From Bacillota bacterium (GTDB taxonomy: Bacteria > Bacillota > Sulfobacillia > JACIYH01): a stretch of DNA of 64,000 nucleotides. Shown piece by piece: positions 2,902 to 20,410 of this stretch (its first letter is position 1; the number at the start of each line of letters is the position of its first letter). Where the stretch lies: assembly GCA_030019365.1 (NCBI GenBank), contig JASEFA010000004.1, forward strand, positions 35,262 to 99,261, in the 5' to 3' direction. The notes beneath the pieces were generated by a model. The model had not been told where the DNA came from, made no database searches, and saw nothing but the letters and a program-made list of their open reading frames with translations. The translations under genes were made by a program, and so were the position numbers.

Positions 2902-2928
2902 TTGTCGGGGCCCCCCGTCAGCGGAGTC

Positions 2929-3547: not shown

Positions 3548-3644
3548 GTCAAGGCGGCTGCACAGTAGATGTACAGTAGAGACCGTCGTTGAGAGTGCCT
3601 GCAGGGTGCCGGGCGGCGGGGTTCTGCATGACGGCCGACACCGG

Positions 3645-4853: not shown

Positions 4854-5999
4854 TCACGAGCGCCACGCCGGGGTGACGTCCGGGCGGTAGTAGCGGCGGT
4901 GGAACGCGAGGGCCACGTTGACCAGCGCCAGCATCACCGGGACCTCTATGAGGGGACCGATGACGGCGGCGAAGGCCTGGCCGGAGTTGAGCCCGAACAC
5001 CGCCACCGCCACCGCGATGGCCAGCTCGAAGTTGTTGCTGGCGGCGGTGAAGGAGAGGCTGGTCGTCTGCGGGTAGTTCACCCCGAGGCGCATGCTGAGG
5101 AAGAAAGACGCCAGGAACATGACGACGAAATAGACGATGAGGGGTATGGCTATCCTGACCACATCCAGGGGCAGCCTGACGATGTATCCGCCCTTGAGGG
5201 AGAACATGACCACGATGGTGAAGAGGAGGGCTATGAGGGCCAAGGGGCTAATGCGGGGGACGAACCGCTCCTCGTACCATTTCTCGCCCTTGAGGGGTGC
5301 GAGGATGGTCCTGGTGAGGAAGCCGGCCACGAAGGGGATGCCCAGGTAAATGGCAACGCTCTTCGCCACCTCGCCGATGGTGACGTGCACCACGGCACCT
5401 TTCAGTCCGAAGACGGTGGGGAGGATGGTAATGAACACGTAGCTATAGACCGAGTAGAAGAACACCTGGAAAAGGGAGTTGAATGCCACCAGGGCGGCGG
5501 CGTACTCGCTATCGCCCCGCGCCAGGGCGTTCCACACGATGACCATGGCGATGCAGCGGGCCAGGCCGATGAGGATGAGCCCCACCATGTATTCGGGGTA
5601 GTTGCGCAAAAAAGTGATGGCCAGGATGAACATCAGGATGGGGCCGATGATCCAGTTCTGGACGAGAGACAGGGCGAGCACCCGGGTGTTGCGGAACACC
5701 TTGCCCAGTTCACCGTACCTGACCTTGGCCAGGGGAGGGTACATCATGACGATGAGGCCGACGGCGATGGGGATAGAGGTGGTGCCGACTGACAGCCTGT
5801 CAAGCAGGTCAGCCACCCCGGGGAACACGTACCCCAACGCCACCCCGGCGGCCATGGCCAGGAGTATCCACAAGGTGAGCAGGCGGTCGAGCAGAGAGAG
5901 CCCGATGGTACGGTTCTCGGCCAACGGAGCTGCCACTCCTTTCCGAGTGTGCTTCTCCCGCCGGTCTGGCGGGCTATCACTCATTGAGCATATCTTCAT
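4854..5999 (-). CDS. acr3: ACR3-family arsenite efflux transporter
   Basis: [34 protein letters not shown] (conserved ACR3 Cys) and [20 protein letters not shown] are diagnostic ACR3 motifs. It has ~10 TM segments. The start is probably a few codons inside the ORF (MSDSPPD...). Confidence 0.85.
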
Positions 6000-6046: not shown

Positions 6047-6457
6047 TTGAAGCTAAGCATATATTCCAAGATGGTGGTGGCTTCTGTGACGGAGGGTTTA
6101 CTCGAGCAGATGGCGGCGGTGCTGAGAGCCCTGGGGCACCCGGCTAGGTTGCGGATCGTGGAGTTCCTGGTCGATGGCGACCTGTGCTCGGGGAGGGACT
6201 GCTCGGGGGAAAAGTGCGTCTGCGAGATCATCCCTGCCCTGGGCATGGAGCAATCGAGCGTGTCCAAGCACCTGGCCATCCTGCGGGACCGGGGTATCGT
6301 CAACTTCAGGCGGGAAGGGACGCGGACGTTTTACTCGCTTGCCGACCCCCGGGTGCTGGAGATACTCAGGCTGGCCCGGGAGGTGTGTATCGGCCACCTG
6401 AGCCGGGCGGAGAAGGTGCTTGCCGAGGCGCGGCGTGTTGACGGTAGCGGATTATGA
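6047..6457 (+). CDS. arsR: ArsR/SmtB-family metalloregulator (arsenite-type CVC site)
   Basis: LGHPARLRIVEFL...EKCVCEIIPALGMEQSSVSKHLAILRDRGIV is an ArsR helix-turn-helix with the ELCVCDL-type As(III)-binding CVC motif. Extra Cys are present (DLCSGRDCSG). A later start at ATG ~6070 is possible. Confidence 0.8.
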   Translation: MKLSIYSKMVVASVTEGLLEQMAAVLRALGHPARLRIVEFLVDGDLCSGRDCSGEKCVCEIIPALGMEQSSVSKHLAILRDRGIVNFRREGTRTFYSLADPRVLEILRLAREVCIGHLSRAEKVLAEARRVDGSGL

Positions 6458-6498
6458 TGATATATTCATAACGCTAATCAAGGACAGGAGGTGCGGCG

Positions 6499-6735
6499 GT
6501 GAAGATCGAGGTTCTGGGACCGGGCTGCCAGAAGTGCCAGGCGCTGCTGAAGAACGTGACGGAGGCCCTGGCCGAGAGCGGCCGGGAGGCGGAGGTCGTG
6601 AAGGTCGAGGACGTGTTCGAGATCATGCAGCGGGGCGTCAACCACACCCCGGCCATAATCATCGACGGCGAGCTGAAGCTCCAGGGCCGGGTGGCCACGG
6701 TGCGGGAGATCACAGGCTGGATTACAGGAAAGTAA
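6499..6735 (+). CDS. Small thioredoxin-family redox-active disulfide protein (TM0996/MTH895-like)
   Basis: 78 aa, MKIEVLGPGCQKCQALLKNV... has a CxxC active site. It starts at GTG after AGGAGGTG. This family is classically encoded beside DUF318 permeases. Confidence 0.7.
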   Translation: MKIEVLGPGCQKCQALLKNVTEALAESGREAEVVKVEDVFEIMQRGVNHTPAIIIDGELKLQGRVATVREITGWITGK

Positions 6736-6817
6736 GGAGGTAATGGCCACCTGCGGGTGGCCTTTTACCGGCCCGCGATTATGAACGGTTTCTCATAGGG
6801 GAAAGAGGGCGGAGATC

Positions 6818-7999
6818 GTGGCAGAGTTACGCAAGTTCTTCTGGCTGCTCGGGGCATTCCTTGCCGCCTACTTCGTGCCGTTCGGGCACCCGCGGGTGTC
6901 AGGGGCCATCCTGGAAGCCTTCCACATGCTGCAGGAGTACGCGCGCCAGCACGTGCTCCTGTGCCTGGTGCCGGCCCTGTTCATCGCCGGGGCGATCGCG
7001 AACTTCGTGTCGCAGGCTTCGGTGATCAAGTACTTCAGCGGGCAGGCCAAAAAGTGGCTTTCGTACTCGGTGGCCTCGGTCTCGGGGACCATCCTGGCGG
7101 TATGCTCGTGCACGGTGCTGCCCTTGTTTGCGGGGATATACCAGCGGGGGGCGGGGCTGGGTCCTGCCATAGCGTTCCTTTACTCGGGGCCGGCCATCAA
7201 CATCCTGGCCATCATCCTGACGGCCAGGGTGCTGGGGTGGAAGCTGGGGCTGGCGAGGGCGCTCGGTGCGGTGTTCTTTTCGGCGGTGATAGGGCTGATC
7301 ATGGCGTACATTTACCGCCACGAGGAGAAGCAGCGCACGGAGGCGGTGTCGCAGCGGGTAGCGGAAGCGATGAGGCAGAAAGAGGCCCGGAGCGGGGCGC
7401 AGAACCTTTTGTACTTCGCGGCCATGGTCGGTATCCTGGTGTTCGCCAACTGGGGGAAGCCGGCGCAGCCGGTGGGGTTCTGGAACGCGGTGTTCGAGGT
7501 CAAGTGGTACATTACGGGAGCGCTCTTGGTCCTCCTCGCCTATATGCTGGCCAGGTGGTTCCGCCGGGCCGAGCTTTCTTCCTGGGTGAGCGCCACCTGG
7601 GGTTTTGCCGGGCAGATCATACCGCTTCTTTTTGCGGGTGTGCTGGCCGCGGGGGTTCTCATGGGCCGGCCGGGCACGGATGCCGGGCTGATTCCGTCGC
7701 GGTGGATCGAGGCTGCGGTGGGCGGCAACTCCCTGCGGGCGAACCTGCTTGCTTCGGTGGCCGGGGCGCTGATGTACTTCGCCACGTTGACGGAGGTGCC
7801 CATCCTGCAGGGGCTGTTAGGGTCGGGGATGGGGCAGGGTCCCGCCCTGGCCTTGCTTCTGGCGGGCCCGGCTCTTAGCCTGCCCAACATGCTGGTGATC
7901 CGCAGCGTGATCGGCACGAAGAAGATGCTGACGTACGTGGGCCTGGTGGCGGTGATGGCCACGCTCACGGGGATGATCTTCGGGGCGATAGTGGGCTAG
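6818..7999 (+). CDS. DUF318/PF03773-family permease (ArsP-like)
   Basis: 393 aa, polytopic, with ILAVCSCTVLPLFAG (CSC motif) and GWKLGLARALGAV. It is a paralog of the permease at 2009..2901. Confidence 0.7.
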   Translation: MAELRKFFWLLGAFLAAYFVPFGHPRVSGAILEAFHMLQEYARQHVLLCLVPALFIAGAIANFVSQASVIKYFSGQAKKWLSYSVASVSGTILAVCSCTVLPLFAGIYQRGAGLGPAIAFLYSGPAINILAIILTARVLGWKLGLARALGAVFFSAVIGLIMAYIYRHEEKQRTEAVSQRVAEAMRQKEARSGAQNLLYFAAMVGILVFANWGKPAQPVGFWNAVFEVKWYITGALLVLLAYMLARWFRRAELSSWVSATWGFAGQIIPLLFAGVLAAGVLMGRPGTDAGLIPSRWIEAAVGGNSLRANLLASVAGALMYFATLTEVPILQGLLGSGMGQGPALALLLAGPALSLPNMLVIRSVIGTKKMLTYVGLVAVMATLTGMIFGAIVG

Positions 8000-8024: not shown

Positions 8025-8504
8025 GTGGCGGAGATCGTGTACCTGGGCCTGGCCGGGGTGCTGCTTCTGGTTTCATGGAGGAAGGACCGGGGCACCACCC
8101 GGCGGGCACTGTCCATCACCCTGGCCACGTTCAAGAAGACCATGCCCTTCATCCTCCTCGTATTCGTGCTGATGGGCGTAGCTCAGGCTTACGTGCCACG
8201 TTCGGTCATCGCTGCCGTCCTGGGTGGTCACAGTGGACCCCTGGCCGTCCTCTACGGGGAGGCGGTGGGCTCGGTGGCCCTCATCCAGCCTTCTGCCGTT
8301 TTCCCCTTTGCCGGATATCTTCTGGCCAACGGGGCGAGCATAGGGGCCCTGGCGGGGTTCATCCTCACGGCCATACTGATCGGCGTCTCCACGCTGCCCA
8401 TCGAGGTGAGCATGCTGGGGTTGCGGTTCACGGTGGCGAGGAACGTGCTGACGTTTGTGGCGGTCTTCCTGGTGGCGCTGGCGATGGGGGCGATCCTGTC
8501 ATGA
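8025..8504 (+). CDS. Half-size permease-like membrane protein (split DUF318-type permease, first gene of pair)
   Basis: 159 aa, ~4-5 TM segments, ...MLGLRFTVARNVLTF... It is a paralog of ORF 12729..13208 and related to the C-terminal repeat of the fused permeases. Confidence 0.5.
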   Translation: MAEIVYLGLAGVLLLVSWRKDRGTTRRALSITLATFKKTMPFILLVFVLMGVAQAYVPRSVIAAVLGGHSGPLAVLYGEAVGSVALIQPSAVFPFAGYLLANGASIGALAGFILTAILIGVSTLPIEVSMLGLRFTVARNVLTFVAVFLVALAMGAILS

Positions 8505-9025
8505 AGAAGCTTGACTCTTCCCTGGCCAGTCTGGTGGCGGCGGGCGTGCTGGCGGGATCGGTCTGGCTGGTTTCGCCGGCACGGGGCGCGGTGGTGGTGC
8601 ATGTGGCCTGGAATGCTCTTGCCATCTCGTGGCTCATCATCCTGAGCGTGTTCGTTTACATCGGGCTCTTACAGGCCTGGGTGAAGCCGGCGGCCATGGC
8701 CAGGTGGCTGGGTAGGAGCTCGGGGGCGAAGGGATTTGCCCTGGCTTCCACGCTGGGCATATTCCTGGGCGGGTCGCTGGTGACGGTGTTCCCCCTGCTG
8801 GCAGCCTTGCGGCAGAAGGGGGCCAGGGTCGGTGTGCTGGCCGCGCTGGTGACGGCTTGGGGAGGGAAGGCTCCGCTGCTGCCGCTGGAAGGCCGGTTCC
8901 TGGGGTGGCAGTTCGCCCTGGTGCGCATGGTCATGGTGATGCTGATGGCAGCTCTTGTGGGGGTGGGAGTGGAAAGGCTTGTGGGAGAGCGGCAGGAAGG
9001 TGGCACCAGCAGCGTGCCCGGGTGA
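8501..9025 (+). CDS. Half-size permease-like membrane protein (split DUF318-type permease, second gene of pair)
   Basis: Starts at ATG 8501 overlapping the upstream stop (ATGA). Sequence VMKKLDSSLASLVAAGVLAG...EGRFLGWQFALVRMVMVML is a paralog of ORF 13205..13780. It lies inside the longer track ORF 8075..9025. Confidence 0.5.
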   Translation: MKKLDSSLASLVAAGVLAGSVWLVSPARGAVVVHVAWNALAISWLIILSVFVYIGLLQAWVKPAAMARWLGRSSGAKGFALASTLGIFLGGSLVTVFPLLAALRQKGARVGVLAALVTAWGGKAPLLPLEGRFLGWQFALVRMVMVMLMAALVGVGVERLVGERQEGGTSSVPG

Positions 9026-9109: not shown

Positions 9110-9586
9110 ATGACGCAGCCCATGGAATGGCAGCCCGGGATGGTCACGCACGAAAACGCGATCTTCGTGTGCTTCGGCGGCCTTTCGAACACGGGGTACA
9201 TCACCGCCCTGGCGGGGATGGAAGCGGTGCGGAGGGTGGGTCTCAAGAAGGCGGCCATCTTCTGCCTGGCGGGACTTCCGGTGGAAGTGAAGATGGTGCT
9301 GGCCAAGGCGAAGGCGGCGAAAAAGATCATCACGGTGGATGGCTGTGCCAACAACTGCGCGAAGAAGCTGGTCGAGGCGGCGGGCTTTCCCATCACGAGG
9401 TCAATCACCCTGGCCGTGGACCTGGGGGTGAAGAAAGTGCCGCTGCACAGGGATCTGGACGGCGAGCCCAAGGATGTGATGGAGTACATCTCCCAGGAGG
9501 ACGTGGCCAGGACGGTCGAGGCCATACTGGCAGCGATTGAAGGCGAGGAGCCTGCCGCGGCCTCCGCATCCGGGGGTGAAGCGTGA
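9110..9586 (+). CDS. DGC-domain protein (putative zinc-binding)
   Basis: ...KIITVDGCANNCAKKLVEAAG... matches the DGC motif/cysteine pattern of PF08859-like proteins. RBS is GGGGAGGAG. Confidence 0.55.
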   Translation: MTQPMEWQPGMVTHENAIFVCFGGLSNTGYITALAGMEAVRRVGLKKAAIFCLAGLPVEVKMVLAKAKAAKKIITVDGCANNCAKKLVEAAGFPITRSITLAVDLGVKKVPLHRDLDGEPKDVMEYISQEDVARTVEAILAAIEGEEPAAASASGGEA

Positions 9587-10404
9587 TGCTGGCTGGGCCT
9601 GCCGGTGAACGCGCAGAGTGCGGGGGCGTCCTGCGGGATCTGTACGGCCACGTCATGTCTTCCCTGCGGCCGAAGACCTTTCCCTTCGGGGTCAAGCTTT
9701 ACCGCAGCCTGGACGAGCGACCGCCTGGGCTTTTGTCCCCGCGGCACCCCATGAACGTGTGCCAGGTGACAGCTCTGGTCCGCTACTACGGGCGGTGCAT
9801 GTACGCCACCTGGCAGGACATGGCGTGTGTGGTCGGCGCGGTGGCCCTGGGCATGATGGAGCCGCCGGAAAACATGCGGTCGGGGAAGATCGCCGAGATG
9901 CTGCACGCGGACCTCGATTCCGCGCGCCGCTTCACGGAACTGGTTCCGCGCATTCCGGCGGGGACTGTCAAGGCTTTTGCCGCGGCGCCGCTCGACCGGT
10001 TGACGTTTGAACCCGATATGGTGGTGATGTACGCGAACACGGCCCAAGCGGTGAGGGTGGTACAGGCCTATCTTTACCGGCGGGGAGGACGGGCGGCCTT
10101 CAGCACGGGTGGCGAATACAGCCTGTGTGCGGACATCATCGCGGAGACGTACACCAAGCACGACTTCGCTCTCGCCATCCCCTGTTTCGGGGACCGCAAG
10201 ACGGCCCTGGCGCAGGACGAGGAGCTGACGGTGGCCTTCCCTGCCGACATGGCCCAGGAGATACTGGACGGCCTGGTGGGCACGGCGAAGACGGCTGCCT
10301 ACCCGACGCCCGTGGACATAGGCTTTCCCCAGATGCCCGATTACACCCTGACGGATTGGGCGGTAGCCTTCCGTCGGGGGAAGGTGGGTTCCGGGCCCGG
10401 TTAG
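9583..10404 (+). CDS. DUF169 (COG2043-like) family protein
   Basis: 273 aa with overall resemblance to DUF169/ArCR proteins (recalled, not searched). It overlaps the DGC gene by 4 nt. Confidence 0.45.
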   Translation: MMLAGPAGERAECGGVLRDLYGHVMSSLRPKTFPFGVKLYRSLDERPPGLLSPRHPMNVCQVTALVRYYGRCMYATWQDMACVVGAVALGMMEPPENMRSGKIAEMLHADLDSARRFTELVPRIPAGTVKAFAAAPLDRLTFEPDMVVMYANTAQAVRVVQAYLYRRGGRAAFSTGGEYSLCADIIAETYTKHDFALAIPCFGDRKTALAQDEELTVAFPADMAQEILDGLVGTAKTAAYPTPVDIGFPQMPDYTLTDWAVAFRRGKVGSGPG

Positions 10405-10529: not shown

Positions 10530-10892
10530 TTGCGGAGGCCGCGGGTCTTGCTGTGCGTGTGCCGGGGGTGTCCCGGTTTTGAGCGGGTCGATGCCTGGAC
10601 CCTGGTTAATCGCCTTCGAGACAACCCTGACGTGGAATTCGCGGTGGCGCACCCCCAGCTTTGCGGTGACGATGGGCTGCGTTTCCTGGCCGACCTGGTT
10701 CGGCCGGCCGTCACGTACCTCGTGGGAGCGTGCGATCCCGCCCTGCAGCGCAAGATGTTGAAGGAAACCTTTACCGCTGCCGGTGTGAGCTTTGACGGGC
10801 AGGTGGTGCCCCTCGACCTGCGCAACATGACGACCGAAGAAGCTGCGGAGAAAGTGGCCGAGGCGGTGAGGGCGCTCAGGGCCGGACAATAG
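10530..10892 (+). CDS. MvhD/FlpD-like Cys-rich small protein (methyl-viologen-reducing hydrogenase delta subunit family)
   Basis: Internal TTG start after GGAGGAGG gives MRRPRVLLCVCRGCPGFERVDAWTLVNRLRDNPDVEFAVAHPQLCGDDG...LVGACDP. The Cys spacing is PF02662-like. It lies inside track ORF 10125..10892. Confidence 0.4.
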   Translation: MRRPRVLLCVCRGCPGFERVDAWTLVNRLRDNPDVEFAVAHPQLCGDDGLRFLADLVRPAVTYLVGACDPALQRKMLKETFTAAGVSFDGQVVPLDLRNMTTEEAAEKVAEAVRALRAGQ

Positions 10893-11842
10893 TGGCGGAC
10901 CGGAAGGGGTACTGTGGACTGCTGGTTGAGGGGGGTACGTGCGGTGCTGGAGAAGTACTCGATCAGGATCGTCCTGCCGGAATGAATCCTGCCGCCCCCA
11001 CCGTGAACGCCATCTTCGACCTGGAAGAGGACATATCGGAGTTGTTGCCGTACCTGAATGCGACGCTTCAGGGGTGCTTCTATGAACCTACCGGGCCTTA
11101 TCTGAGGTTCATGAAGGAGGGCAAGGCTGTCACGCTGCATGCCCGGCAGGTTACCATCACGCGGCTGGAGGATGAAGAAGAAGCCCGGCGGGTCATGGAG
11201 TGGCTGGTGGAGGTTATCCGCAGCACGCATGCCAACCGTGACAGGATCCAGCCCAGCCACCGGCGGCGTGCTGAGTTGAAGGTGCTGGACGTTTACAGGC
11301 TGTTACCCCGGTCCAATTGCGGCCGCTGCGGCGAACCCGCCTGCCTGGCGTTTGCGGCGAAGGTGGCCTCAGGTGAGCGCGGGGCCCGTGACTGCCCGGT
11401 TCTCTGCGAGCCGGGAAATGAGGAAAGGCTTGCCCGGCTGGAAGAAGCGTTGGGCCAGGGGGAATGCTGGCCGGACCAAGGGGGAAAAGTGATGCATCCC
11501 GAGGAGTACAGGTACAGCAAGACGCACGAGTGGGCCAAGGTTGAGGGTGACCTGGTGCGGGTGGGCCGAGGCCCGGCTGGACTGGTCCGGGGCTGCCGGT
11601 CGCGACGGTGGAGCCTGAGGCGTGCCAGCAAACGGCGGAGCTGGCCCACAAAAGCGCCCGGGCTGGCCACGTGGTGCTTCGCGGGGTCGGGGGCGGGGTG
11701 GGGGCGTATGGCCATCACATCCCGCGTCGCGCCCGGCGTTCTGCATCGCTATACGCCCTGTGAGCTCGAGATCAACCGCGAGGCAGTGCACGTCATGGAT
11801 AATCACCATGAGGGTGATCTGACACTTACTGGCAAGTCATAG
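10892..11842 (+). CDS. Fe-S cluster domain protein (PF04060-like), with a C-terminal region that looks like a frameshifted glycine-cleavage H-protein-like remnant
   Basis: Residues ~130-180 YRLLPRSNCGRCGEPACLAFAAKVASGERGARDCPVLCEPGNEERLARLEEAL are paralogous to the window-start gene. From ATG ~11494 the sequence MHPEEYRYSKTHEWAKVEGDLVRVG matches the conserved GcvH N-terminus, then similarity is lost in all frames. Gene boundaries are uncertain. Confidence 0.4.
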   Translation: MADRKGYCGLLVEGGTCGAGEVLDQDRPAGMNPAAPTVNAIFDLEEDISELLPYLNATLQGCFYEPTGPYLRFMKEGKAVTLHARQVTITRLEDEEEARRVMEWLVEVIRSTHANRDRIQPSHRRRAELKVLDVYRLLPRSNCGRCGEPACLAFAAKVASGERGARDCPVLCEPGNEERLARLEEALGQGECWPDQGGKVMHPEEYRYSKTHEWAKVEGDLVRVGRGPAGLVRGCRSRRWSLRRASKRRSWPTKAPGLATWCFAGSGAGWGRMAITSRVAPGVLHRYTPCELEINREAVHVMDNHHEGDLTLTGKS

Positions 11843-11914: not shown

Positions 11915-11969
11915 TTGACGGCGGTGCCGGGACCGGGTATAATCGTGCTGATAAGTGTACATTGCACTT
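11915..11969 (+). promoter_or_regulatory. Consensus sigma-70-type promoter TTGACG-17 bp-TATAAT followed by imperfect palindrome AAGTGtacattgCACTT (candidate PadR operator) upstream of padR
   Basis: Hexamers at ~11915-11920 and ~11938-11943 with a 17-nt spacer. Palindrome at ~11953-11969. RBS GGAGGG and ATG 11987 follow. Confidence 0.45.
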
Positions 11970-11986
11970 AGGAGGGTGAGCCACTG

Positions 11987-12382
11987 ATGTGCGGCGAGCA
12001 TGGCCGCGGTTTCCGCGCGGGCGCCTGCGGCTGTCATGACCGGCGGGGGGAGAGGTTCCTGGAAGCGTGGCTGCTTCTGCTTTTGAAGAGTGGCCCGTCC
12101 CATGGTTACCAGCTGGTGGAACGCCTGGGCCAGGTGCTGGGCGGAAGTGGGTTTCCGGACCCCGGTACGGTGTACAGGAACCTGCGGCGAATGGAGGAGG
12201 AAGGGCTGGTGAGTTCGAGCTGGGACCTCCAGGACAGCGGCCCGCCGCGCCGTCTGTATCGGCTGACCGAGCAGGGCGAGGAGTTGCTCCACGTGTGGGC
12301 TGCGAACGTGGAACATTACCGGGCCCGGCTTGACCGGTTCCTCGGGATGTACCGCGAGCTTGCGGGCGATTCCCGGGGCTAG
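11987..12382 (+). CDS. PadR-family transcriptional regulator with Cys-rich N-terminal extension (MCGEHGRGFRAGACGCH)
   Basis: Core ...WLLLLLKSGPSHGYQLVERLGQVLGGSGFPDPGTVYRNLRRMEEEGLVSSSWDLQDSGPPRRLYRLTEQGEELL is typical PadR. The N-terminal extension resembles the N-terminus of the next small protein. Confidence 0.7.
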   Translation: MCGEHGRGFRAGACGCHDRRGERFLEAWLLLLLKSGPSHGYQLVERLGQVLGGSGFPDPGTVYRNLRRMEEEGLVSSSWDLQDSGPPRRLYRLTEQGEELLHVWAANVEHYRARLDRFLGMYRELAGDSRG

Positions 12383-12409
12383 GCCCGGTTCAAAAAGGAG
12401 GAGAGAGGT

Positions 12410-12601
12410 ATGTGTGGTAGCAGGCAGCACGGCTGGCACGAGTTCGCCGGCGCCGGAGGGTGTTGTTGTGGCGGTGGCATGCGCCGCCGGTTCTTCAGCA
12501 AGGAAGAGCGGTTGGCCAGGTTGCGCGACTACCTGGAAGAGCTGAAAGCGGAAGCCCAGCAGGTGGAAAAAGTGATCCGCGAACTCGAGTCCGAAAAGTG
12601 A
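12410..12601 (+). CDS. Small protein with Gly-flanked CCC triplet (AGAGGCCCGGG) and charged coiled-coil-like tail, unknown function
   Basis: 63 aa with a strong RBS (AAAAAGGAGGAGAGAGGT ATG). It lies between padR and the split permease pair. It shares the motif with ORF 2929..3114. Confidence 0.5.
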   Translation: MCGSRQHGWHEFAGAGGCCCGGGMRRRFFSKEERLARLRDYLEELKAEAQQVEKVIRELESEK

Positions 12602-12728
12602 AAACCGGCCTCGAACTCACCGGCGGCATCCGGGCGGTCCTGGCGGCCGCCCGGAGCTTAATGCCGTTGGGTGCCGGGGTTGCCGTATTGCCACGGCAGG
12701 TTGGCGGCGGAGGGAGTGGAGTGGTAGC

Positions 12729-13208
12729 GTGGCGTTCAACCTGGCGCTGTATGCTGTGTCGGCAGTGGTGGTCCTTGTTTCCGCGCTGCGGGACCGGGGT
12801 AAGACACGCCAGGCGCTGGCCGTTGCCTGGCGTTCGTTTTGCCGGGTTGCCCCTTCCATGCTGGGCATCATGGGGCTCATCGGGCTGGTGCTGACTCTGA
12901 CTCCGGCGAGCACGATAGTCACCCTGTTTAACAACCAGAACGTTTGGGGCATCTTGCTGGTTGCCGCCGTCGGGGCGGTGACGCTGATCCCCGGGATCAT
13001 CGCCTATCCCCTAGCGGGTTCCCTGGTGCGCCAGGGAGCGGGGGTGGTGCCGATCGCGGCGTTCATGACCACTCTCATGATGGTCGGCGTGGTAACCGCT
13101 CCCCTGGAGAGCCACTATTTCGGCCGGCGTTTCGCGCTCCTCCGTAACGGCCTCAGTTTCATTGCCGCGTTGGCCATAGCGGCCGCCATGGGGGTGGTGC
13201 TGGGGTGA
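12729..13208 (+). CDS. Half-size permease-like membrane protein (split DUF318-type permease, first gene of pair)
   Basis: Paralog of 8025..8504 (...HYFGRRFALLRNGLSFIAALAIAAAMGVVL). It starts at GTG with GGAGGGAGTGGAGTGG upstream. Confidence 0.5.
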   Translation: MAFNLALYAVSAVVVLVSALRDRGKTRQALAVAWRSFCRVAPSMLGIMGLIGLVLTLTPASTIVTLFNNQNVWGILLVAAVGAVTLIPGIIAYPLAGSLVRQGAGVVPIAAFMTTLMMVGVVTAPLESHYFGRRFALLRNGLSFIAALAIAAAMGVVLG

Positions 13209-13780
13209 GCCCTGGCGGTCGATTGGGGACGAAGCTGGCGAGGCTGCGGCCGTACGCCCTCCTCATTCTCACGCTTGTGGGCGATCTGGCCCTGGGTGTG
13301 GTGAGGCCCGGGCTGGGGTGGCAGGCCGTGCGGACGTCCGCTTCTTACCTGTTGGAAATGCTGCTGGTGCTGCCCCCCATCTTCGTGCTGATCGGCATGC
13401 TGGAGGTGTGGGTTCCCCGGCAGACCATCGTGCGCAACGTGGGCCCCGGGTCCGGACTGCGCGGGCTGGCACTCTCTGTTTTGACCGGGTCTGCTGCTGC
13501 CGGGCCGCTCTACGGGGCCTTTCCCGTGGCCGAGTCTTTGCTCAGGAAGGGTTGTTCGGTATTCAACGCGTGCGTGCTGCTCTGCACCTGGGCGGCGGTG
13601 AAAATCCCCATGATCATGATGGAGGTGAAGTTCCTGGGCTGGCGGTTTTCCCTGGCCCGGCTGGCCTTCACGCTGCCGGCCATCGTGCTCATAAGCTGGC
13701 TGGTGGATCGCTTCACGCCTCGCCTGGGTGGGTTGTGCGGAGAAGACCGGCCTGGGGTGGGTCGGGAGATGCCGCGGTGA
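13205..13780 (+). CDS. Half-size permease-like membrane protein (split DUF318-type permease, second gene of pair)
   Basis: 4-nt overlap with the upstream gene. ...KFLGWRFSLARLAFTLPAIVLISWL is a paralog of 8501..9025. Confidence 0.5.
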   Translation: MSPGGRLGTKLARLRPYALLILTLVGDLALGVVRPGLGWQAVRTSASYLLEMLLVLPPIFVLIGMLEVWVPRQTIVRNVGPGSGLRGLALSVLTGSAAAGPLYGAFPVAESLLRKGCSVFNACVLLCTWAAVKIPMIMMEVKFLGWRFSLARLAFTLPAIVLISWLVDRFTPRLGGLCGEDRPGVGREMPR

Positions 13781-13813: not shown

Positions 13814-14128
13814 ATGCACGTTGCCGACATACTGGCGGAAAGGGAATTCTCACCTCAAGACAAGGTGCGCAAGGAGATCTACCGTTCCGGAGCCGCCAAG
13901 GTCCTTTTGATCTGCTTTGAGTCCGGTCAGGCACTGGAACCCTGCGTCATGGGTGCCGAGGTAGTGTTCTACGTGGTAGAGGGAACCGGTCGCATCAGGG
14001 TGGAATCGACCACAGTGGACGTGCGCCAGGGTTCCCTCGTGGTCGTTCCTGCCGGGCTGGAGCGCCAGATCGAGGCGTGCTCCCCCATGGTGGTGCTGGC
14101 CCTGCAGGCCCTTGGCCAGGGGGGATAG
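13814..14128 (+). CDS. Cupin-domain protein
   Basis: 104 aa with a two-motif cupin-like pattern (VLLICFESGQALEPCVMGAEVVFYVVEGTGRIRVE...LVVVPAGLE). Confidence 0.6.
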   Translation: MHVADILAEREFSPQDKVRKEIYRSGAAKVLLICFESGQALEPCVMGAEVVFYVVEGTGRIRVESTTVDVRQGSLVVVPAGLERQIEACSPMVVLALQALGQGG

Positions 14129-14339: not shown

Positions 14340-15896
14340 ATGGTGGGGTGGTCCGGCGTGTTCCGGCGAGGCGCCAGTGTGTGCCCGCAAGGACGGGGTG
14401 AAAGGGGATGGTGGGAGGTGGCGGTCGGAAGCGTGAGTTTGCGGGCCAAGCGGTATGCGGCCCGCCGGGCCATGGAGTGGCTGGTGGGGTACCTGCGGCG
14501 GGATCCGGAGCGGGCCGTCGACTCCATCCTCTCGTGGGGCAAGCGGCTGGCGGTGATGGAGGCGCACCGCCGCCAGGTAGAAGAGCTGGCGGTGACTTTG
14601 CGGGATAATCCCGCCATGATGCGGTTCGTGCGCCGGCTGGCGCTGGAGGTGCATCCCAACCAGCACCGGGGTGTGGTTTTCAACTGGTTCGTGAACAGCA
14701 TCCTGCTCGGCCTCCCGGTCCAGTACGCCCTGGCGGAGAGGCTGGGTCACGGGGTTCCGCACTTCATCCTGGTGGACCCCACGGAGGCGTGCAACCTGCG
14801 GTGCGTGGGGTGTTGGGCGGGCGAGTACGCGCAGTACCACACCATGCCGTTTGAACTCCTGGACAGGATCGTGACGGAGGCGAAGGAGCTGGGGATATAC
14901 TGGATAGTCCTGTCAGGCGGCGAACCGCTGCTGTACAAGCGTCTCTTCGAGCTGTTTGCCAGGCACCGCGATGTGGCCTTCATGGCTTTCACCAACGGCA
15001 CCCTCATCGACGACCGGACGGCTGATCGGATCCTTGAGGTGGGCAACTTCGTGCCCTGCATCAGCCTGGAGGGGTTCCGGGAGAGCACGGATGGGCGCCG
15101 GGGTCCGGGTGTGTTTGACCGCATATCGGCGGCCATGGATCGGCTCAAGGAGCGGAAGCTGATCTTCGGGACGTCGGTAACCATCACGCGGCACAACGTC
15201 GAGGAGATCACATCCGATGGCTTCATCGACTGGGTCATAGACAAAGGTGCGTTCTTCGGCTGGAGCTTCCACTACATCCCGGTGGGCCGCGATCCCGACG
15301 TGGAGCTCATGGTGACGCCGGAGCAGCGGGAGTATCTGGTCTATCGAGTGAGGGAAATCAGAACTTCCAAGCCGTACCTCTGGGCTGATTTCTGGAACGA
15401 CGGTTATCTCACGAACGGGTGCATTGCTGGTGGCCGCCGCTACTTCCACATTCTGGCCTCGGGGGAGGTTGAGCCCTGCGCTTTTGCCCACTTCTCGGTC
15501 GGGAACATAAAGGACCTGAGCCTGCGGGAAGTCCTGGCGAACCCCCTGTTCCGGGCCTACCAAAAGCGGCAGCCGTTCAACCCCAACCACCTGGCGCCCT
15601 GTCCCATAATTGACAACCCCCAGGCTCTGCGCGACATCGTGGCCGAATCGGGGGCGCGCCCGACGCACCCCGGTGCGGAGAGTGTGCTGCAGGGGCCGGT
15701 CGCTGCTTACCTCGACCGGCTGTCCCGGGAGTGGCGGGAGAGGGCCGAGGGGGTGCGGCGGCGCCTGGGGCTGGGTGATGTCCAGGTTGCGGCTTGCGAA
15801 CTAGCGGTGCCGGAATCTGCTCACGGCGGGGAGGCCGGGCAGGAGGAAGGCCCAGTTGTGGCCGCGGGGCACGGGGTGGAAGGACCGGGAAGCTGA
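14340..15896 (+). CDS. Radical SAM enzyme with C-terminal SPASM/twitch-like Cys-rich domain, substrate unknown; likely start ATG ~14472
   Basis: HFILVDPTEACNLRCVGCWAGEY holds the CxxxCxxC motif. The GGEPLL glycine motif is present. The C-terminal region has additional Cys (NGCIAGGRRYFHILASGEVEPCAFAHF...APCPII). Confidence 0.7.
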   Translation: MVGWSGVFRRGASVCPQGRGERGWWEVAVGSVSLRAKRYAARRAMEWLVGYLRRDPERAVDSILSWGKRLAVMEAHRRQVEELAVTLRDNPAMMRFVRRLALEVHPNQHRGVVFNWFVNSILLGLPVQYALAERLGHGVPHFILVDPTEACNLRCVGCWAGEYAQYHTMPFELLDRIVTEAKELGIYWIVLSGGEPLLYKRLFELFARHRDVAFMAFTNGTLIDDRTADRILEVGNFVPCISLEGFRESTDGRRGPGVFDRISAAMDRLKERKLIFGTSVTITRHNVEEITSDGFIDWVIDKGAFFGWSFHYIPVGRDPDVELMVTPEQREYLVYRVREIRTSKPYLWADFWNDGYLTNGCIAGGRRYFHILASGEVEPCAFAHFSVGNIKDLSLREVLANPLFRAYQKRQPFNPNHLAPCPIIDNPQALRDIVAESGARPTHPGAESVLQGPVAAYLDRLSREWRERAEGVRRRLGLGDVQVAACELAVPESAHGGEAGQEEGPVVAAGHGVEGPGS

Positions 15897-15953: not shown

Positions 15954-17039
15954 TTGGGCGGGGCGGGCCGGGTAGGGGTGGTCACCGATAGCTGCTCTGG
16001 TGTCTCTCCCGAGATGGCGCAGGCCCTGGGTATCGAGGTGGTTCCCCTCACGGTAATCTTCGGCGAGGAGGCCTTCCTGGACGGAGTGGATATCGATACT
16101 GCTGAGTTTTACGCGCGCATGGCGCGGGGGCCTGTGCTGCCGCGCACCTCGCAACCCTCGCCCGCCCGGTTCCTGGATGCCTTCTCGCGCCTAGCGGCTC
16201 AGGGGGCAAGCGGGGTGGTCGTGGTGACGGTGGCGGGTGCTCTGAGCGGTACTTACCAGTCGGCTTTGCGGGCAGCCGCGGACTTCTCCGGACTGCCGGT
16301 TGAGGTGGTGGATTCGGGCACCGCTTCGCTGGGGCAGATGTTCGCCGTGCTGGCGGCTGCCGAGGTTGCGCGCAAGGGGTCTGAAGTGGCGCAGGTGGTG
16401 CTCAGGGTGCGGGAAGTGGCGGGCAGGACTCGGCTGTATGGCGTGCTGGAAACCCTGGAGTACCTGCGGCTCGGGGGACGCATCGGTAGGGCCGCGGCGT
16501 GGACGGGCTCGCTCCTTCAGATCAAGCCCGTGCTGGCTCTTGGCAACGGGGACATCGTTCCGGTGGCCAGGCTGAGGACCAGGGCCCGGGCGGTGGAGTT
16601 CATGCTTTCCCGTGTGGAAGGGGACTTGCGTTCGGAGCCGGGTGGCACCTTGCGCATGGGTGTCGTGCACTCCGCCTGCCCTCGCGAGGCCGGTGAGCTG
16701 GCGGAAAAGGTAAGAGAGAGATTTGTGCCCGACGAACTGGTGGTATCGGAATTGACGCCGGTAATGGGTGCTCATGCCGGGCCGGGAGTGCTCGGGGTGG
16801 CCTTTTACCGCGACTGGTGCTGCGGGTCCGACTGGGAGTTACCGTCTGCCGGCGAGCGGCGGTGCCCTGCCGCGGTTCCCCAGGCGGGTGCCGGACGCGC
16901 CGTAACGCGGTGGCCCTGGGGCAGGCAGGAAAGTCCCTGTCGTTGGTCGAAGCAGTCGAATATAGGCATGGAAGCAACCGGGTCCGTTCGGGGCGTGGGT
17001 GCGGGGAGCTTGAGTAGGTGGCAGCGGGGGTGGGACTGA
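15954..17039 (+). CDS. DegV-family (fatty-acid-binding) protein; ORF reads ~75 codons past the expected DegV end
   Basis: VGVVTDSCSGVSPEMAQALGIEVVPLTVIF...GVAFYRD has DegV-like composition (established family features, recalled). The tail WCCGSDWELPSAGERRCPAA... is not DegV-like. Confidence 0.6.
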   Translation: MGGAGRVGVVTDSCSGVSPEMAQALGIEVVPLTVIFGEEAFLDGVDIDTAEFYARMARGPVLPRTSQPSPARFLDAFSRLAAQGASGVVVVTVAGALSGTYQSALRAAADFSGLPVEVVDSGTASLGQMFAVLAAAEVARKGSEVAQVVLRVREVAGRTRLYGVLETLEYLRLGGRIGRAAAWTGSLLQIKPVLALGNGDIVPVARLRTRARAVEFMLSRVEGDLRSEPGGTLRMGVVHSACPREAGELAEKVRERFVPDELVVSELTPVMGAHAGPGVLGVAFYRDWCCGSDWELPSAGERRCPAAVPQAGAGRAVTRWPWGRQESPCRWSKQSNIGMEATGSVRGVGAGSLSRWQRGWD

Positions 17040-17158
17040 AAATACGGCGCTGTGTTCGAAGGTGGGTGCAGAGGCCGTTTCCTGGTGAGAGTCGGCGGGC
17101 CGATTTGTGTCGGGAGGCGAACTGACCCGGAGACCTGCAAGTGCAAGGAGGTGCCAGG

Positions 17159-18916
17159 ATGCGCAAGCTGGTGAGGGTCAATATGACCCAGCGGACCGTG
17201 ACTCTGGAGGATTTGCCCGAGAAGTACCGGTTCATGGGTGGGCGCTGGCTGACGTCGGCCCTGGTGGCCGATGAGGTGCCTCCCACGTGCCATCCCCTGG
17301 GGCCCAATAACCGGCTGGTGGTGGCCCCCGGCATGGTGACGGGGACGGCGGCTCCCAGTTCGGGGCGTGTGTCGGTGGGAGGCAAGTCTCCGCTCACCGG
17401 CGGCGTCAAAGAGTCGAATGCGGGCACGCCCGTAGCGCAGAGCCTTTCCAGGCTGGGAATCGCGGCTGTGCTGGTAGAAGGACAGCCCCGGGAGAAGGGG
17501 GCATTGTTTGTCCTCAGGCTGGGCAAGGGCGGAGGGGTACTTGAGCCGGCGGGGGACCTGGCGGGCCTGGGCATGTACGAGTTTGCTTCGCGTGTGCGGC
17601 AACGGTTTGGGGAGGTGGGCTTCATCGCCACCGGGCCAGCGGGTGAAAAGGGTATGGCCATGGCGGGGGTATGCTTCAACGACACCGAGTTTCGGCCGTC
17701 CCGCTATGCGGGCCGGGGCGGGCTGGGTGCCGTCATGGCGGCAAGGGGCCTGAAGGCCATCCTGGTGGACGATCAAGGTGCGCCGGGCGTTTCGCTTGCT
17801 AACCCGGATCTGTTCCGCCAGGGCCAGAGGAAACTCGCCGACGCCCTGCGCGAGCACCCCATCACCCGCCCGGGCGGCACTCTCAACTCCTTCGGCACGG
17901 CTGCCCTCATCAACGTGCTGAACGAGGCAGGAGGTCTGCCCACCCGGAACTTCAGTTCCGGCCGGTTCGAAGGAGCTGGGAGAATTGCCGGTGAGACCAT
18001 CGCGGAAACGGTGAAGGCGCGGGGCGGGCAGGGCAGGATGGGGCACGGTTGCCACCCAGGGTGCGTGATCCAGTGCAGCAACATCTGGGCAAGGCCGGAC
18101 GGGTCGGAGCACGTTTCCTGCCTGGAGTACGAATCGGTGTGGGCGCTGGGCGCCGATTGTGGTATAGACGACCTGGACGCCATAGCCGAGCTCATCTGGA
18201 TCTGCAACGATAGCGGCCTTGACACCATCGAAGCGGGAGTCACGCTGGGGGTGGCCATGGAAGCGGGTCTGCTGCCTTTCGGCGATGCCAGGACGGCTGT
18301 GGAGTTACTGAAGGAATGCGGCCGGGGGACGCCGCTGGGGCGCATCCTGGGTAACGGAGCGGCCTTTGCGGGTCGGGGGTTCGGGGTCACCCGGGTGCCT
18401 GTGGTGAAGGGTCAGGGGATGCCGGCGTACGAACCCCGTGCGGTGAAGGGGATTGGCGTCACCTACATGACTTCCCCCATGGGCGCGGACCACACTGCCG
18501 GCTACACCGTGGCCCCTGAGATTCTCTCGGTGGGAGGCAAGGCAGACCCGCTGGCCGCCGGGGGCAAGGCCAAGCTTTCTGCCGATCTGCAGGCTGCCAC
18601 CGCGTTCATCGACAGTACCGGATACTGCCTCTTCATCGCCTTTGCCGTCATGGACATTCCCAGCGGGTTCGAGGGCATGGTGGAGACCTGCAACGGCGTC
18701 CTGGGTACAGAGTGGACTGTGGCAGATGTGGCGGCCATTGGTGCCCGGATAGTGGCCATGGAACGGCGCTTCAACGAGGCGGCAGGGATTACCCGGGCCC
18801 AGGATCGCCCGCCTGAGTTCATGCGCTATGAACCCCTCCCGCCTCATAACCAGGTGTTCGATGTCTCCGACGAAGAGTTGGACCAGGTGGGAGTTCTGCT
18901 CGGGCAGGACAGGTGA
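17159..18916 (+). CDS. aor: Aldehyde:ferredoxin oxidoreductase family (tungsten-containing AOR)
   Basis: 585-aa protein with characteristic AOR N-terminal (MRKLVRVNMTQRTVTLEDLPEKYRFMGGRWLTSALV) and central/C-terminal regions. ATG 17159 is preceded by AAGGAGGTG at 6 nt. Confidence 0.8.
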   Translation: MRKLVRVNMTQRTVTLEDLPEKYRFMGGRWLTSALVADEVPPTCHPLGPNNRLVVAPGMVTGTAAPSSGRVSVGGKSPLTGGVKESNAGTPVAQSLSRLGIAAVLVEGQPREKGALFVLRLGKGGGVLEPAGDLAGLGMYEFASRVRQRFGEVGFIATGPAGEKGMAMAGVCFNDTEFRPSRYAGRGGLGAVMAARGLKAILVDDQGAPGVSLANPDLFRQGQRKLADALREHPITRPGGTLNSFGTAALINVLNEAGGLPTRNFSSGRFEGAGRIAGETIAETVKARGGQGRMGHGCHPGCVIQCSNIWARPDGSEHVSCLEYESVWALGADCGIDDLDAIAELIWICNDSGLDTIEAGVTLGVAMEAGLLPFGDARTAVELLKECGRGTPLGRILGNGAAFAGRGFGVTRVPVVKGQGMPAYEPRAVKGIGVTYMTSPMGADHTAGYTVAPEILSVGGKADPLAAGGKAKLSADLQAATAFIDSTGYCLFIAFAVMDIPSGFEGMVETCNGVLGTEWTVADVAAIGARIVAMERRFNEAAGITRAQDRPPEFMRYEPLPPHNQVFDVSDEELDQVGVLLGQDR

Positions 18917-19005: not shown

Positions 19006-19437
19006 ATGCCGCTGGTGAGGGTGCGGCTATATGCTTCCTTGAGGGAATACGCCCCGGAGGGTTTCCGGAGCGAGGGCTTCACCGTGCAGCTTCCCCCGGC
19101 GAGCACTGTGGCTGACCTTTACGCGCGGCTGGGCCTGCCTGAGGAACAGGTCAAGCAGGCGTTCGTGAACGGCAGGCGGGCGGAACCCGACAGGGTGCTG
19201 GAGGACGGGGATGAGGTGGGGGTGTTTCCACCCATCGCCGGGGGAAGCGGGGAGGAGCGGAGCTGGCGTGCTCGCCGAGCGGGTGTACAGGGAGGATATC
19301 GAAGGGGGAGTCCTGCTTCACCGCGCACGCCCGGATCTGCGCAGGCTGTACGTGGAGTTGACCAGCCGGTGCCGGGGCGGATGCGTAGCATGTGTGAGGA
19401 GATCGTGGGACGAGCCCGTGGGGGATATGTCCGTTGA
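19006..19437 (+). CDS. MoaD/ThiS-like sulfur carrier (AOR-associated) whose Gly-Gly is not followed by a stop
   Basis: MPLVRVRLYASLREYAPEGF...EDGDEVGVFPPIAGG is a MoaD-type beta-grasp ending in GG at ~19248, but the frame stays open to 19437. RBS GGAGGGA is 7 nt before ATG 19006. Confidence 0.5.
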   Translation: MPLVRVRLYASLREYAPEGFRSEGFTVQLPPASTVADLYARLGLPEEQVKQAFVNGRRAEPDRVLEDGDEVGVFPPIAGGSGEERSWRARRAGVQGGYRRGSPASPRTPGSAQAVRGVDQPVPGRMRSMCEEIVGRARGGYVR

Positions 19438-20410
19438 CCTGTTGCGCGAGGTCATTGCCGGGGCGGTCCGCGAGTCCCAGCTGGAACGGGTCCACTTCGG
19501 GGGCATCGGTGAGCCCTTCCTCCACCCGGGCGTCATGGAAGCCATTGCTCTCGTCAAAGGGGCAGGGTTGAAGGTCACCATCTCCACGAACGGATCTGAT
19601 CTCAGGACGCTGGCGGGAGAGCTCGTCGCCATGCAGGTGGACGAGCTGGTCGTGTCCTGCGACAGCCCGGACCCCGGCCGGTACGGAGAGATCCGCGGCT
19701 CCTCGTTAGCTGCCTTGGAAGAAGGACTGGAGGCGCTGGGCCGGGCCAAGGCGCGAGCCGGCAGTGTTCTTCCTCGCCTGGTGCTGGAGTTTGTGGCCAT
19801 GCGCGGCAACCTGGCGGACCTGCGTGACATGCCCCGCTTCGCGAGGCGCTGGGGAGCGGCGTCCCTGCTGGTGACCAACCTGCTTCCTTACACTCGTGCC
19901 ATGGCCGGCGAGATTCTCTACACCGGTCCGAACGCACCCATGCGCCCCGCGGAAAGCGGCAGTCTGCGGCCTGATGCCTCCGCCCTGGTGTGGGCGGCTG
20001 CGGCCAGAGAGTGGTTCACCTGGGGCACGGTCGACCTTCCCCGCATGGCGTGGGGCGCGGCCCGCCGCTGCCGTTTCGTGGGGACTCAGGCGGCGGTGGT
20101 GGGCTGGGATGGCAAGGTGAGCTCGTGCATTCCCCTCTCGCACAATTACACCTTTTTCATCTTCGGCCAGCCCAAGTGTGTGCGGCGTTACACCCTGGGG
20201 GAGCTCGGGAGTCAGGATCTCTTGGCCATCTGGATGTCGGAAGAGTATGTGAAGTTCAGAAGCAGGGTGCGCCGTTACGATTTCCCCTCGTGCGTTGACT
20301 GTGCGCTGGGCGAGACCTGCGACTACCGGTCGGAGAACAGGGACTGCTGGGGAGGAGACCCTTCCTGCGCCGATTGCCTTTGGGCGCAGGACATCATCCG
20401 CTGTCCCTGA
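19211..20410 (+). CDS. Radical SAM/SPASM enzyme of the kind found with tungsten AOR genes (putative tungsten-cofactor oxidoreductase maturase); true start probably GTG ~19268
   Basis: YVELTSRCRGGCVACV holds CxxxCxxC. The C-terminus has multiple CxxC-type clusters (CIPLSH, CVDCALGETCDY, CADCLW). The conserved AOR / MoaD / radical SAM neighbourhood is established knowledge. Confidence 0.6.
   Translation: MRWGCFHPSPGEAGRSGAGVLAERVYREDIEGGVLLHRARPDLRRLYVELTSRCRGGCVACVRRSWDEPVGDMSVDLLREVIAGAVRESQLERVHFGGIGEPFLHPGVMEAIALVKGAGLKVTISTNGSDLRTLAGELVAMQVDELVVSCDSPDPGRYGEIRGSSLAALEEGLEALGRAKARAGSVLPRLVLEFVAMRGNLADLRDMPRFARRWGAASLLVTNLLPYTRAMAGEILYTGPNAPMRPAESGSLRPDASALVWAAAAREWFTWGTVDLPRMAWGAARRCRFVGTQAAVVGWDGKVSSCIPLSHNYTFFIFGQPKCVRRYTLGELGSQDLLAIWMSEEYVKFRSRVRRYDFPSCVDCALGETCDYRSENRDCWGGDPSCADCLWAQDIIRCP

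Follow-up and report, generated by a model that had tools for sequence, protein, structure and literature searches.

A Cys/His-rich microprotein family encoded beside PadR and ArsR repressors: candidate partners in metal-responsive regulation

Metal sensing in bacteria is usually credited to a few families of one-protein regulators, of which PadR is not one. In the CopY/CopZ system, a small metal carrier (CopZ, with a ferredoxin-like fold and an MxCxxC motif) stands beside a winged-helix repressor that bears a CxCxxxxCxC cluster. Another two-protein arrangement is that of HAAS (PF22564/DUF1700), in which a stand-alone PadR winged helix-turn-helix (wHTH) protein is obligately paired with an adjacent gene, and a helical module is thought to relay the signal of a fused sensor; the proposal is that HAAS and PadR form a signalling unit of two proteins (bioRxiv 10.1101/2020.09.24.301986). 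Moreover, SrnR of Streptomyces griseus, which belongs to the ArsR/SmtB family, works with the small nickel-binding partner SrnQ, with which it forms a complex (PMC7055735). On the export side, a CSC motif marks the thiol-dependent efflux permeases ArsP, SaoE and SO_0444 (bioRxiv 10.1101/2022.07.06.499078). Here, we analysed a 64,000-nt stretch of an uncultured Bacillota genome (contig JASEFA010000004.1, positions 35,262 to 99,261; hereafter the window; GC content 63-72%), in which a padR gene is followed by the gene for a 63-aa protein, microprotein B, and by two permease genes of the DUF318 (PF03773) type. Microprotein B looks like a cytosolic partner of the regulator, predicted to take part in sensing or handling metals; we file it outside any curated family, with the locus as a probable regulator plus small partner of a known type. 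No description of this pairing came up in searches of the literature on PadR with DUF318, on DUF5320 and on PadR with metallothioneins.

Both small open reading frames (ORFs) that concern us, that of unit B (the locus of microprotein B) and a 61-aa one in a second locus of the window, unit A, are genuine coding genes, as the initial annotation of this DNA had supposed, and both are under purifying selection. Nonsynonymous divergence (pN) is lower than synonymous divergence (pS) in both. For microprotein B, the comparison with locus L006 (69% identical; L-numbered loci are genome or database contexts) gave a pN of 0.15 and a pS of 0.58, the N-terminal 23 codons (pN 0.16, pS 0.72) being constrained like the remainder, and the indels between the two were in frame. 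In the close relatives, the reading frame is kept across a 15-nt deletion and a 9-nt insertion, and the changes at Cys and Gly codons are synonymous. A word-indexed homologue search returned close relatives only for microprotein B and near-identical copies only for the small protein of unit A, and a profile search of genome contigs with the close-relative alignment of microprotein B gave no matches. An exhaustive profile scan (E<=1e-3, representatives clustered at 50% identity) set the size of the microprotein B family at at least 321 clusters from several phyla, and a second search, with a 78-sequence alignment as the query, added 437 further clusters; the clusters of both searches are all labelled hypothetical, and those of the second carry no Pfam domain.

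The expectation that no small-protein family of this kind had been described was borne out as far as curated families go: Pfam and NCBIfam yielded nothing useful for either small protein, with no match at all for microprotein B of the window, and no precomputed Pfam domain was present among the 120 database homologues listed. The window protein did not match DUF5320 (PF17253) even at E<=1; among the 78 aligned family members, 10 matched this model at E<=0.01 (best 2e-5), and the member P0065 reached 17.2 bits against a cut-off of 27. HAAS (PF22564) likewise did not match the window protein, and three of ten family members gave weak scores over the helix (E 0.014-0.06; 14-16 bits against a cut-off of 27). 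Sequence searches of the PDB returned generic coiled coils only.

The members share a plan in which a variable Cys/His/Gly-rich head is followed by a helix of the pattern [F/H]RRRF-x-[S/T]-K-E-E-x-I-x-x-L-E-x-Y-L-x-x-L-x-x-E-x-x-x-V-E-E-x-I-x-E-L, with R26, E33, L38, Y41, L45, E48 and V52 nearly invariant. In microprotein B, the head contains C2, H7, H10 and GGCCCGG at residues 16-22; in the AlphaFold2 model it is disordered and is followed by a single confident helix at residues 31-61. In the 217 family members whose motif could be recognised, the median head is 34 aa long and contains five Cys and five His, and 51% of these members start with MC. The initial annotation had centred on the CCC triplet, and this did not prove to be the conserved element: CCC, though the commonest form, was found in 53% of these members, CC only in 28%, CxC only in 12% and one or no Cys in 7%. 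What is common to 87% of the members is a CCC, CC or CxC cluster lying within 14 residues of the RRF motif.

The genes around the microprotein tie it to regulators. After near-identical loci were counted once, 17 informative contexts were available, of which 10 have a PadR gene and four an ArsR gene directly upstream; L014 is one of the ArsR cases. In the other three, the microprotein gene lies in an ArsR-led operon once and has no regulator twice. The ArsR stop codon and the microprotein start codon often overlap. These counts uphold the link to PadR that the initial annotation had drawn from the window. For pattern extraction, the full 78-sequence alignment was too diverse and a sub-alignment around LRAEAQAVE proved usable; 11 genome loci were then retrieved purely by the helix peptide L[RKQ][AS]EAQAVE, from Myxococcales, Acidobacteria, Chloroflexota, Anaerolineae, Bipolaricaulota and Anaeromyxobacter. 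Six of the 11 carry a PadR gene of the same subfamily (E 1e-26 to 1e-34) within a few bases upstream, one has an ArsR gene, one has nothing, and three start too near a contig end for the upstream gene to be judged.

The genes that follow are far less constant, and include MFS plus ChrA, ABC exporters, methyltransferases, an MBL-fold protein and an LTXXQ protein (gene orders in Table 1). The initial annotation had treated the small protein as a partner of the DUF318 permease. Among the 17 contexts, a PF03773 gene follows a B-type microprotein directly in the window lineage alone, and one occurs somewhere in the fetched locus in six, which corrects the natural but mistaken view of the CCC peptide as belonging with the permease. 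On the best reading of these contexts, the evolutionary unit would be the dyad of regulator and microprotein rather than the permease, combining either PadR or ArsR with interchangeable cargo in Bacillota, Myxococcota, Acidobacteriota, Chloroflexota and Bipolaricaulota. Some observations on individual loci may be added. In L006, the microprotein gene has a promoter-like TTGACA-17-TTATACT of its own (1440-1600), about 200 nt from padR, so the two genes are not always on one transcript; in the same locus, the tail of an LTXXQ/Metal_resist periplasmic protein (2359-2958), GFGCGRHGWGGFGGCRG, resembles the head of microprotein B, CGSRQHGWHEFAGAGGCCCG. In L023, L025/L026 and L028, family members lie among maturation and structural genes of [NiFe]-hydrogenases (hypC, hypD, hypE, hypF, HoxH). 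Such neighbours, together with the Met-Cys start of half of the members, are a weak hint toward a possible role in nickel handling.

The partner PadRs themselves carry a Cys-rich N-terminus. Across phyla it has the form MC-x(5-12)-C-x-C, often CxCxCxC, with C2 and C14 invariant, and the extension ends in R-x-F immediately ahead of the first PadR helix. This is the layout of the microprotein head as well: MC, a Cys cluster, RRF and a helix. Furthermore, the style of the Cys motifs co-varies between the partners in a qualitative comparison of a small sample, GCGC/GCHC PadRs occurring with GGCCCG heads in Bacillota-type loci and CGCRCGC PadRs with CxC-rich heads in Myxococcales and Acidobacteria. 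Look-alike sites on both partners are the pattern of metallochaperone-target pairs. The two parts are also found in one chain: P0104 (220 aa) is a natural fusion of an ArsR/SmtB helix-turn-helix (HTH) domain (NF033788, E 7e-22) with a Cys/His head and the helix, SVCCCHHWHGGRRFLSREEMIAQLEEYL.

In unit B, the features reported by the initial annotation were all recovered (Table 1). The consensus promoter matches at 11 of 12 positions (11915-11943), with 0.2 equally good sites expected in shuffled sequences; the PadR gene (11987-12382) is followed by the gene for the 63-aa protein of the sequence given (12410-12601); and two half-permease genes are translationally coupled. The palindrome is present, though slightly longer than the 11953-11969 first reported, namely 11952-11970. 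Its TAAGTG-N7-CACTTA has both arms kept in L002, where two spacer bases are changed, and 7-N7-7 repeats occur at the equivalent promoter position of distant PadRs of the same subfamily (CTATAGG-N7-CCTATAG in L021, L022 and L029; CTATATG-N7-CATATAG in L015). That repeats spaced by 7 nt recur in the stretch from the -10 hexamer to the ribosome-binding site supports autoregulation. PadR B clears the PF03551 cut-off (73 bits against 27), and its nearest NCBIfam model, the PhaQ equivalog TIGR02719, scored 87.7 bits, below the cut-off of 139.35.

We arranged these features into one reading, to which we give about an even chance as a whole: the repressor and the microprotein would form a dyad with control over exporters and with a thiophilic metal or metalloid as its signal, unit B being an autoregulated operon whose exporter would be a heterodimer of two half-size DUF318-like subunits. 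The repressor would occupy TAAGTG-N7-CACTTA downstream of the -10 hexamer. The microprotein head would then capture its ligand, a metal or metalloid of thiophilic character or possibly a species that reacts with thiols, and this ligand would be shared with or passed to the N-terminal Cys motif of the repressor, or else the helix would dock on the regulator. Release of the repressor would lead to more microprotein, as a buffer or chaperone, and to production of the lineage-specific exporter. As to the ligand, a thiophilic one is plausible, as the initial annotation had proposed for the CCC triplet. The As(III)-type S3 site suggested there is disfavoured: because His matches Cys in frequency across the heads (median of five each) and an N-terminal Cys is present, the composition points toward Zn, Ni, Co, Cd or Cu. 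A more specific form of this reading is less likely than not. In it, the microprotein would serve a split metalloregulator as a detachable subunit that senses or delivers the metal, its helix docking on PadR or ArsR, the MC...CxC tail of the regulator copying the head, and one thiophilic ion being shared or exchanged between them.

Several points weigh against the dyad. In about 7% of the members, the called head contains at most one Cys, in some of them because the gene call is truncated. Compared with solved structures, the helix gives the scores of a generic coiled coil and might simply oligomerise a metallothionein-like buffer. Where no regulator stands directly upstream, the place is taken by a VKOR or FeS gene in two contexts and by no gene in one. 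The half-permeases of unit B are without CSC, and the cargo may have a substrate other than a soft metal. In addition, the 17 non-redundant loci are a small sample of contexts and a non-random draw, and ligand binding, protein contact and the direction of the signal are what we infer from composition, gene order and one fusion.

Table 1 Features of units A and B in the window and gene orders in other microprotein loci (small, the microprotein gene)
Feature	Location	Strand	Remarks
Sigma-70-type promoter of the padR-B operon, TTGACG-17-TATAAT	11915-11943	+	11/12 positions match
Candidate PadR operator, inverted repeat TAAGTG-N7-CACTTA	11952-11970	.	between -10 hexamer and ribosome-binding site
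PadR-family repressor B, 131 aa, N-terminal Cys/His extension MCGEHGRGFRAGACGCH	11987-12382	+	PF03551 73 bits, E 2e-20
Microprotein B, 63 aa	12410-12601	+	AAGGAGG ribosome-binding site upstream
Half-size DUF318-like permease subunit 1 (B1), 159 aa	12729-13208	+	PF03773 19.6 bits, profile positions 17-133
Half-size DUF318-like permease subunit 2 (B2), 191 aa	13205-13780	+	PF03773 54.6 bits, cut-off 32.3
Small cupin gene (Cupin_2)	13814-14128	+	34 nt past permease, own AAGGAGG site
Full-length PF03773 permease A, TPFCSCS motif	2009-2901	-	151 bits; 1-nt deletion near 2140
Microprotein A, 61 aa, LWRRLLGGGGSCCCG then acidic tail, GGGGSCCCG	2929-3114	-	overlaps padR-A 3' end by 32 nt
PadR-family regulator A, ~131 aa, vicinal Cys pair SGCCTP	3083-3478	-	PF03551 58 bits (cut-off 27)
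Possible unit A promoter, TTGACA-17-TATAAG, then TAGG-ATA-CCTA	3520-3551	-	read from sequence
PadR, small, MFS, ChrA	L021, L022		
PadR, small	L029		
PadR, small, LTXXQ/Metal_resist	L006		
ArsR, small, ABC ATPase, ABC-2 permease	L027/28, L035-38		
ArsR, small	L039		
ArsR, ArsP_1, Thioredoxin_3, VKOR, FeS, small	L025/26		
VKOR, small	L023/24		

The two permease genes of unit B had been described initially as a split permease. The results showed that B1 and B2 are paralogues (30% identical) that each match the first half of the Pfam model, and that the stop of B1 and the start of B2 overlap by 4 nt (GTGA, 13205-13208). A second coupled pair is present at 8025-9025, consisting of C1 (8025-8504, 159 aa, PF03773 33.9 bits) and C2 (8501-9025, 174 aa), both on the plus strand, with 35% identity between B1 and C1 and 31% between B2 and C2. 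The B permease is a distinct two-subunit subfamily and not a broken gene. None of B1, B2, C1 and C2 has a Cys at the site of the Cys-Ser-Cys (TPFCSCS) motif, which in the thiol-dependent permeases lies in the first repeat; permease A of unit A carries the CSC motif as TPFCSCS, and the protein at 6818-7999 carries it as AVCSCTV. The NCBIfam equivalog scores, 82.6 and 77.6 bits, are far below the cut-offs of 300 and 325. The start of B1 and the non-coding spacer upstream of it are confirmed by frame-breaking indels between strains; a longer, 202-aa B1, as called in L003-L005, was ruled out by 1- and 2-nt upstream indels of this kind. A true split DUF318 gene does occur in L021 (7163-8130), where one gene aligns to the N-terminal half and the other to the C-terminal half of a full-length protein of the ArsP type, and TPFCSCS is kept.

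The C1/C2 pair directly follows the full-length ArsP_1 gene of an ArsR operon and is missing from the close relative L002. This operon is the classical unit of ArsR, a thioredoxin-like protein (Thioredoxin_3) and a DUF318 permease (ArsP_1) that had been noted at 6047-7999, and it is indeed there. Downstream of C1/C2 lie a DGC gene (9110-9586), a DUF169 gene (9583-10404) and a gene with a PF04060 FeS domain (10892-11842). At the other end of unit B, no terminator was found between the B permease and the cupin gene, which is possibly the last gene of the operon; in L027, a cupin gene likewise follows the ArsR, microprotein and ABC unit. Further downstream, two genes, for DegV (15954-17039) and for an aldehyde:ferredoxin oxidoreductase (17141-18916), lie between two radical SAM/SPASM genes (14340-15896 and 19211-20410, plus strand); in relatives, these radical SAM/SPASM genes show no link to the microprotein.

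Unit A, on the minus strand, had been reported at 2009-3547 as the other copy of a twice-occurring module. The padR gene, the 61-aa ORF with GGGGSCCCG and the permease gene are all present, and the boundary at 3547 is wrong: the PadR start is a GTG near 3478, which is supported by L009. The ATG at 3547 was rejected as the start; it sits within the putative -35 hexamer, and the gene of L009 starts at the downstream site. A consensus scan rejected the possible promoter of unit A, in which the last base of the -10 hexamer is G, and L009 is without this promoter. Microprotein A is identical to the NCBI entry 'MAG: hypothetical protein QME70_08050 [Bacillota bacterium]'. A metagenome scan with PadR A found one informative relative, L030, and four other hits, which are distant PadR-ABC units without a CCC ORF. 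In L030, the order of PadR, microprotein and permease is conserved, the PadR is 80% identical to PadR A and keeps its GCC pair, and residues 1-33 of microprotein A, including LW(R/K)RLLGGxGSCCCG, gave a pN of 0.12 and a pS of 0.66; the acidic tail drifts yet remains in frame. Permease A, described as fused in the initial annotation, is full-length in its PF03773 match and is not intact. A 1-nt deletion in a G-run near 2140, also seen in the two independent assemblies L007 and L008, lies before the last helix and puts the last 38 profile positions into another frame. The diverged strain L009 is intact at this site but has a separate 1-nt deletion near the 5' end (near 1800). Two independent frameshifts suggest that permease A may be decaying and being lost.

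Neither unit is a copy of the other. PadR A and PadR B are 32% identical, and the permease architectures differ, A being of the full-length CSC type and B consisting of two Cys-less half-size subunits. Against the family HMM of microprotein B, microprotein A scored 3.5-7 bits with the match confined to the 8-residue motif GxGCCCG, which rules out the candidate homology beyond this motif; what the microproteins share is G-x-CCC-G only. Units A and B are thus best described as having similar logic and, to judge from these comparisons, non-homologous parts, rather than as duplicates. Around unit A, thiol and redox genes are found on both sides: an Fe-hydrogenase-like gene (272-1075), a ThiS-like gene (1094-1372) and a 169-aa Thioredoxin_3 fusion (1369-1878), and on the minus strand a DsbD_TM gene (3645-4334), a thioredoxin gene (4335-4706) and an SBF/ACR3-like transporter gene (4854-5999).

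Other explanations of the microprotein have to be weighed against the dyad. It is conceivable, if somewhat improbable, that the microprotein is a metallothionein-like buffer only, that is, the first cargo gene of a metal-responsive repressor, held in an oligomer by its helix and making no signalling contact. Its heads are Cys/His-rich, variable in length and disordered, and in having as many as 14 Cys they are similar to bacterial metallothioneins; the helix is much like generic coiled coils; the partner PadR, with a Cys motif of its own, could sense the metal alone; and the small gene of L006, 200 nt after padR, has its own promoter. However, a buffer would not need its strict place right after the regulator, often with overlapping codons and in two regulator families. 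Nor would it explain the fusion to an ArsR HTH domain, and the invariant polar and aromatic helix positions (R26, E33, Y41 and E48) suggest a specific interface. The permease offers a different starting point. Among the window's six-frame codons (~128,000), CCC is found only six times; two of these sites, both Gly-flanked, lie exactly between a padR and a PF03773 gene, and this rarity and placement indicate that the pattern is not chance. In the model of the initial annotation, the Gly-flanked CCC would bind As(III), Sb(III) or Hg as a dedicated S3 ligand and would serve the DUF318 permease instead of the usual thioredoxin-like partner, with PadR in the place of ArsR. The classical ArsR, Thioredoxin_3, ArsP_1 unit in the same window, the PF03773 genes in six of the 17 fetched loci, the TPFCSCS thiol motif of permease A and the gene order kept between unit A and L030 are all in keeping with this proposal. 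We nevertheless regard it as unlikely, given that a PF03773 gene directly follows a B-type microprotein in the window lineage only, that CC or CxC replaces CCC in about 40% of the members, that the heads are as rich in His as in Cys, that the B half-permeases are without the CSC motif, and that permease A is frameshifted in the window and independently in L009.

A role in redox or reactive-sulfur sensing is doubtful too, and we rate it as quite unlikely. Cys-pair persulfide sensors occur in the ArsR and CsoR families (BigR, SqrR and CstR), and the vicinal Cys of the microprotein and the regulator might respond to persulfide, polysulfide, sulfite or oxidants through di- or polysulfide links instead of a bound metal, the operon then exporting sulfur or oxyanion species. 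The neighbourhoods are rich in genes of thiol-disulfide and sulfur chemistry, namely DsbD_TM, thioredoxin, VKOR, TauE and ThiS-like genes and a rhodanese-fused pyridine-nucleotide oxidoreductase, and the cargo includes the anion exporters ChrA and TauE. But the high, conserved His content and the frequent N-terminal MC point to metal chelation, and sulfur-oxidation genes are not consistently adjacent. Finally, three successive Cys codons upstream of transporter genes would suit a leader or attenuator, and the radical SAM/SPASM genes of the window (14340-15896 and 19211-20410) would suit the precursor of a ribosomally synthesised and post-translationally modified peptide (RiPP); in either case the small ORF would not encode a functional protein. 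This reading is very improbable and was rejected: as protein, the C-terminal 40 residues are conserved best, an adjacent or conserved maturase is missing from all 17 contexts, and the radical SAM gene is not a direct neighbour in the close relatives L002-L005. The idea of a riboswitch or attenuator was likewise given up, there being no Rfam hits, no terminator and no significant fold in the 127-nt spacer (z -0.74).

If the dyad of repressor and microprotein does work as a unit, it would provide a testable two-protein, chaperone-like metalloregulator, an annotation rule for these microproteins and a handle on the unassigned substrates of the half-size DUF318, MFS plus ChrA and ABC-2 exporters. 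Should the more specific split metalloregulator hold true, PadR would join the metalloregulator families, and a widespread two-protein sensing principle, present in anaerobes of at least five phyla, would lie behind proteins that are now annotated as hypothetical.

Compared with the systems described so far, unit B shares features with each and coincides with none. The order of regulator, small Cys protein and PF03773 permease is that of ArsR-Thioredoxin_3-ArsP_1 units, and permease A has the CSC motif; however, the microprotein is not thioredoxin-like, the B permease is two-subunit and Cys-less, and elsewhere the family is untied to PF03773. DUF5320 proteins resemble microprotein B in being small and in having an N-terminal part that is rich in Gly and contains Cys, followed by a coiled-coil helix at the C-terminus. 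The microprotein family may at best be a peripheral relative of it, the window protein giving no match, and membership would explain nothing, since DUF5320 is itself without known function.

With HAAS-PadR, unit B has in common a PadR gene next to a gene for a helical module, with variable cargo or sensor parts. In contrast, HAAS is a three-helix module whose third helix is kinked and bears GxP, and in most cases it is part of a fusion with a membrane or Toastrack sensor, whereas microprotein B is soluble, with a Cys/His head and one helix in the AlphaFold2 model that lacks the GxP motif. The microprotein family also pairs with ArsR (PadR upstream in 10 of the 17 contexts, ArsR in four, neither in three). 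This ArsR side recalls SrnR/SrnQ, as far as the two can be compared by description: a winged-helix protein with a small, domainless partner parallels the ArsR contexts of L014, L027 and L035-39 and the fusion P0104. SrnQ differs in that it is not described as Cys-rich, and no PadR version of SrnR/SrnQ is known. As for CopY/CopZ, CopY is not a PadR protein and has its cluster at the C-terminus, and the microprotein combines a disordered head with one helix; what the two systems would share is a carrier beside a repressor with look-alike metal sites, just as the N-terminus of the partner PadR mirrors the microprotein head.

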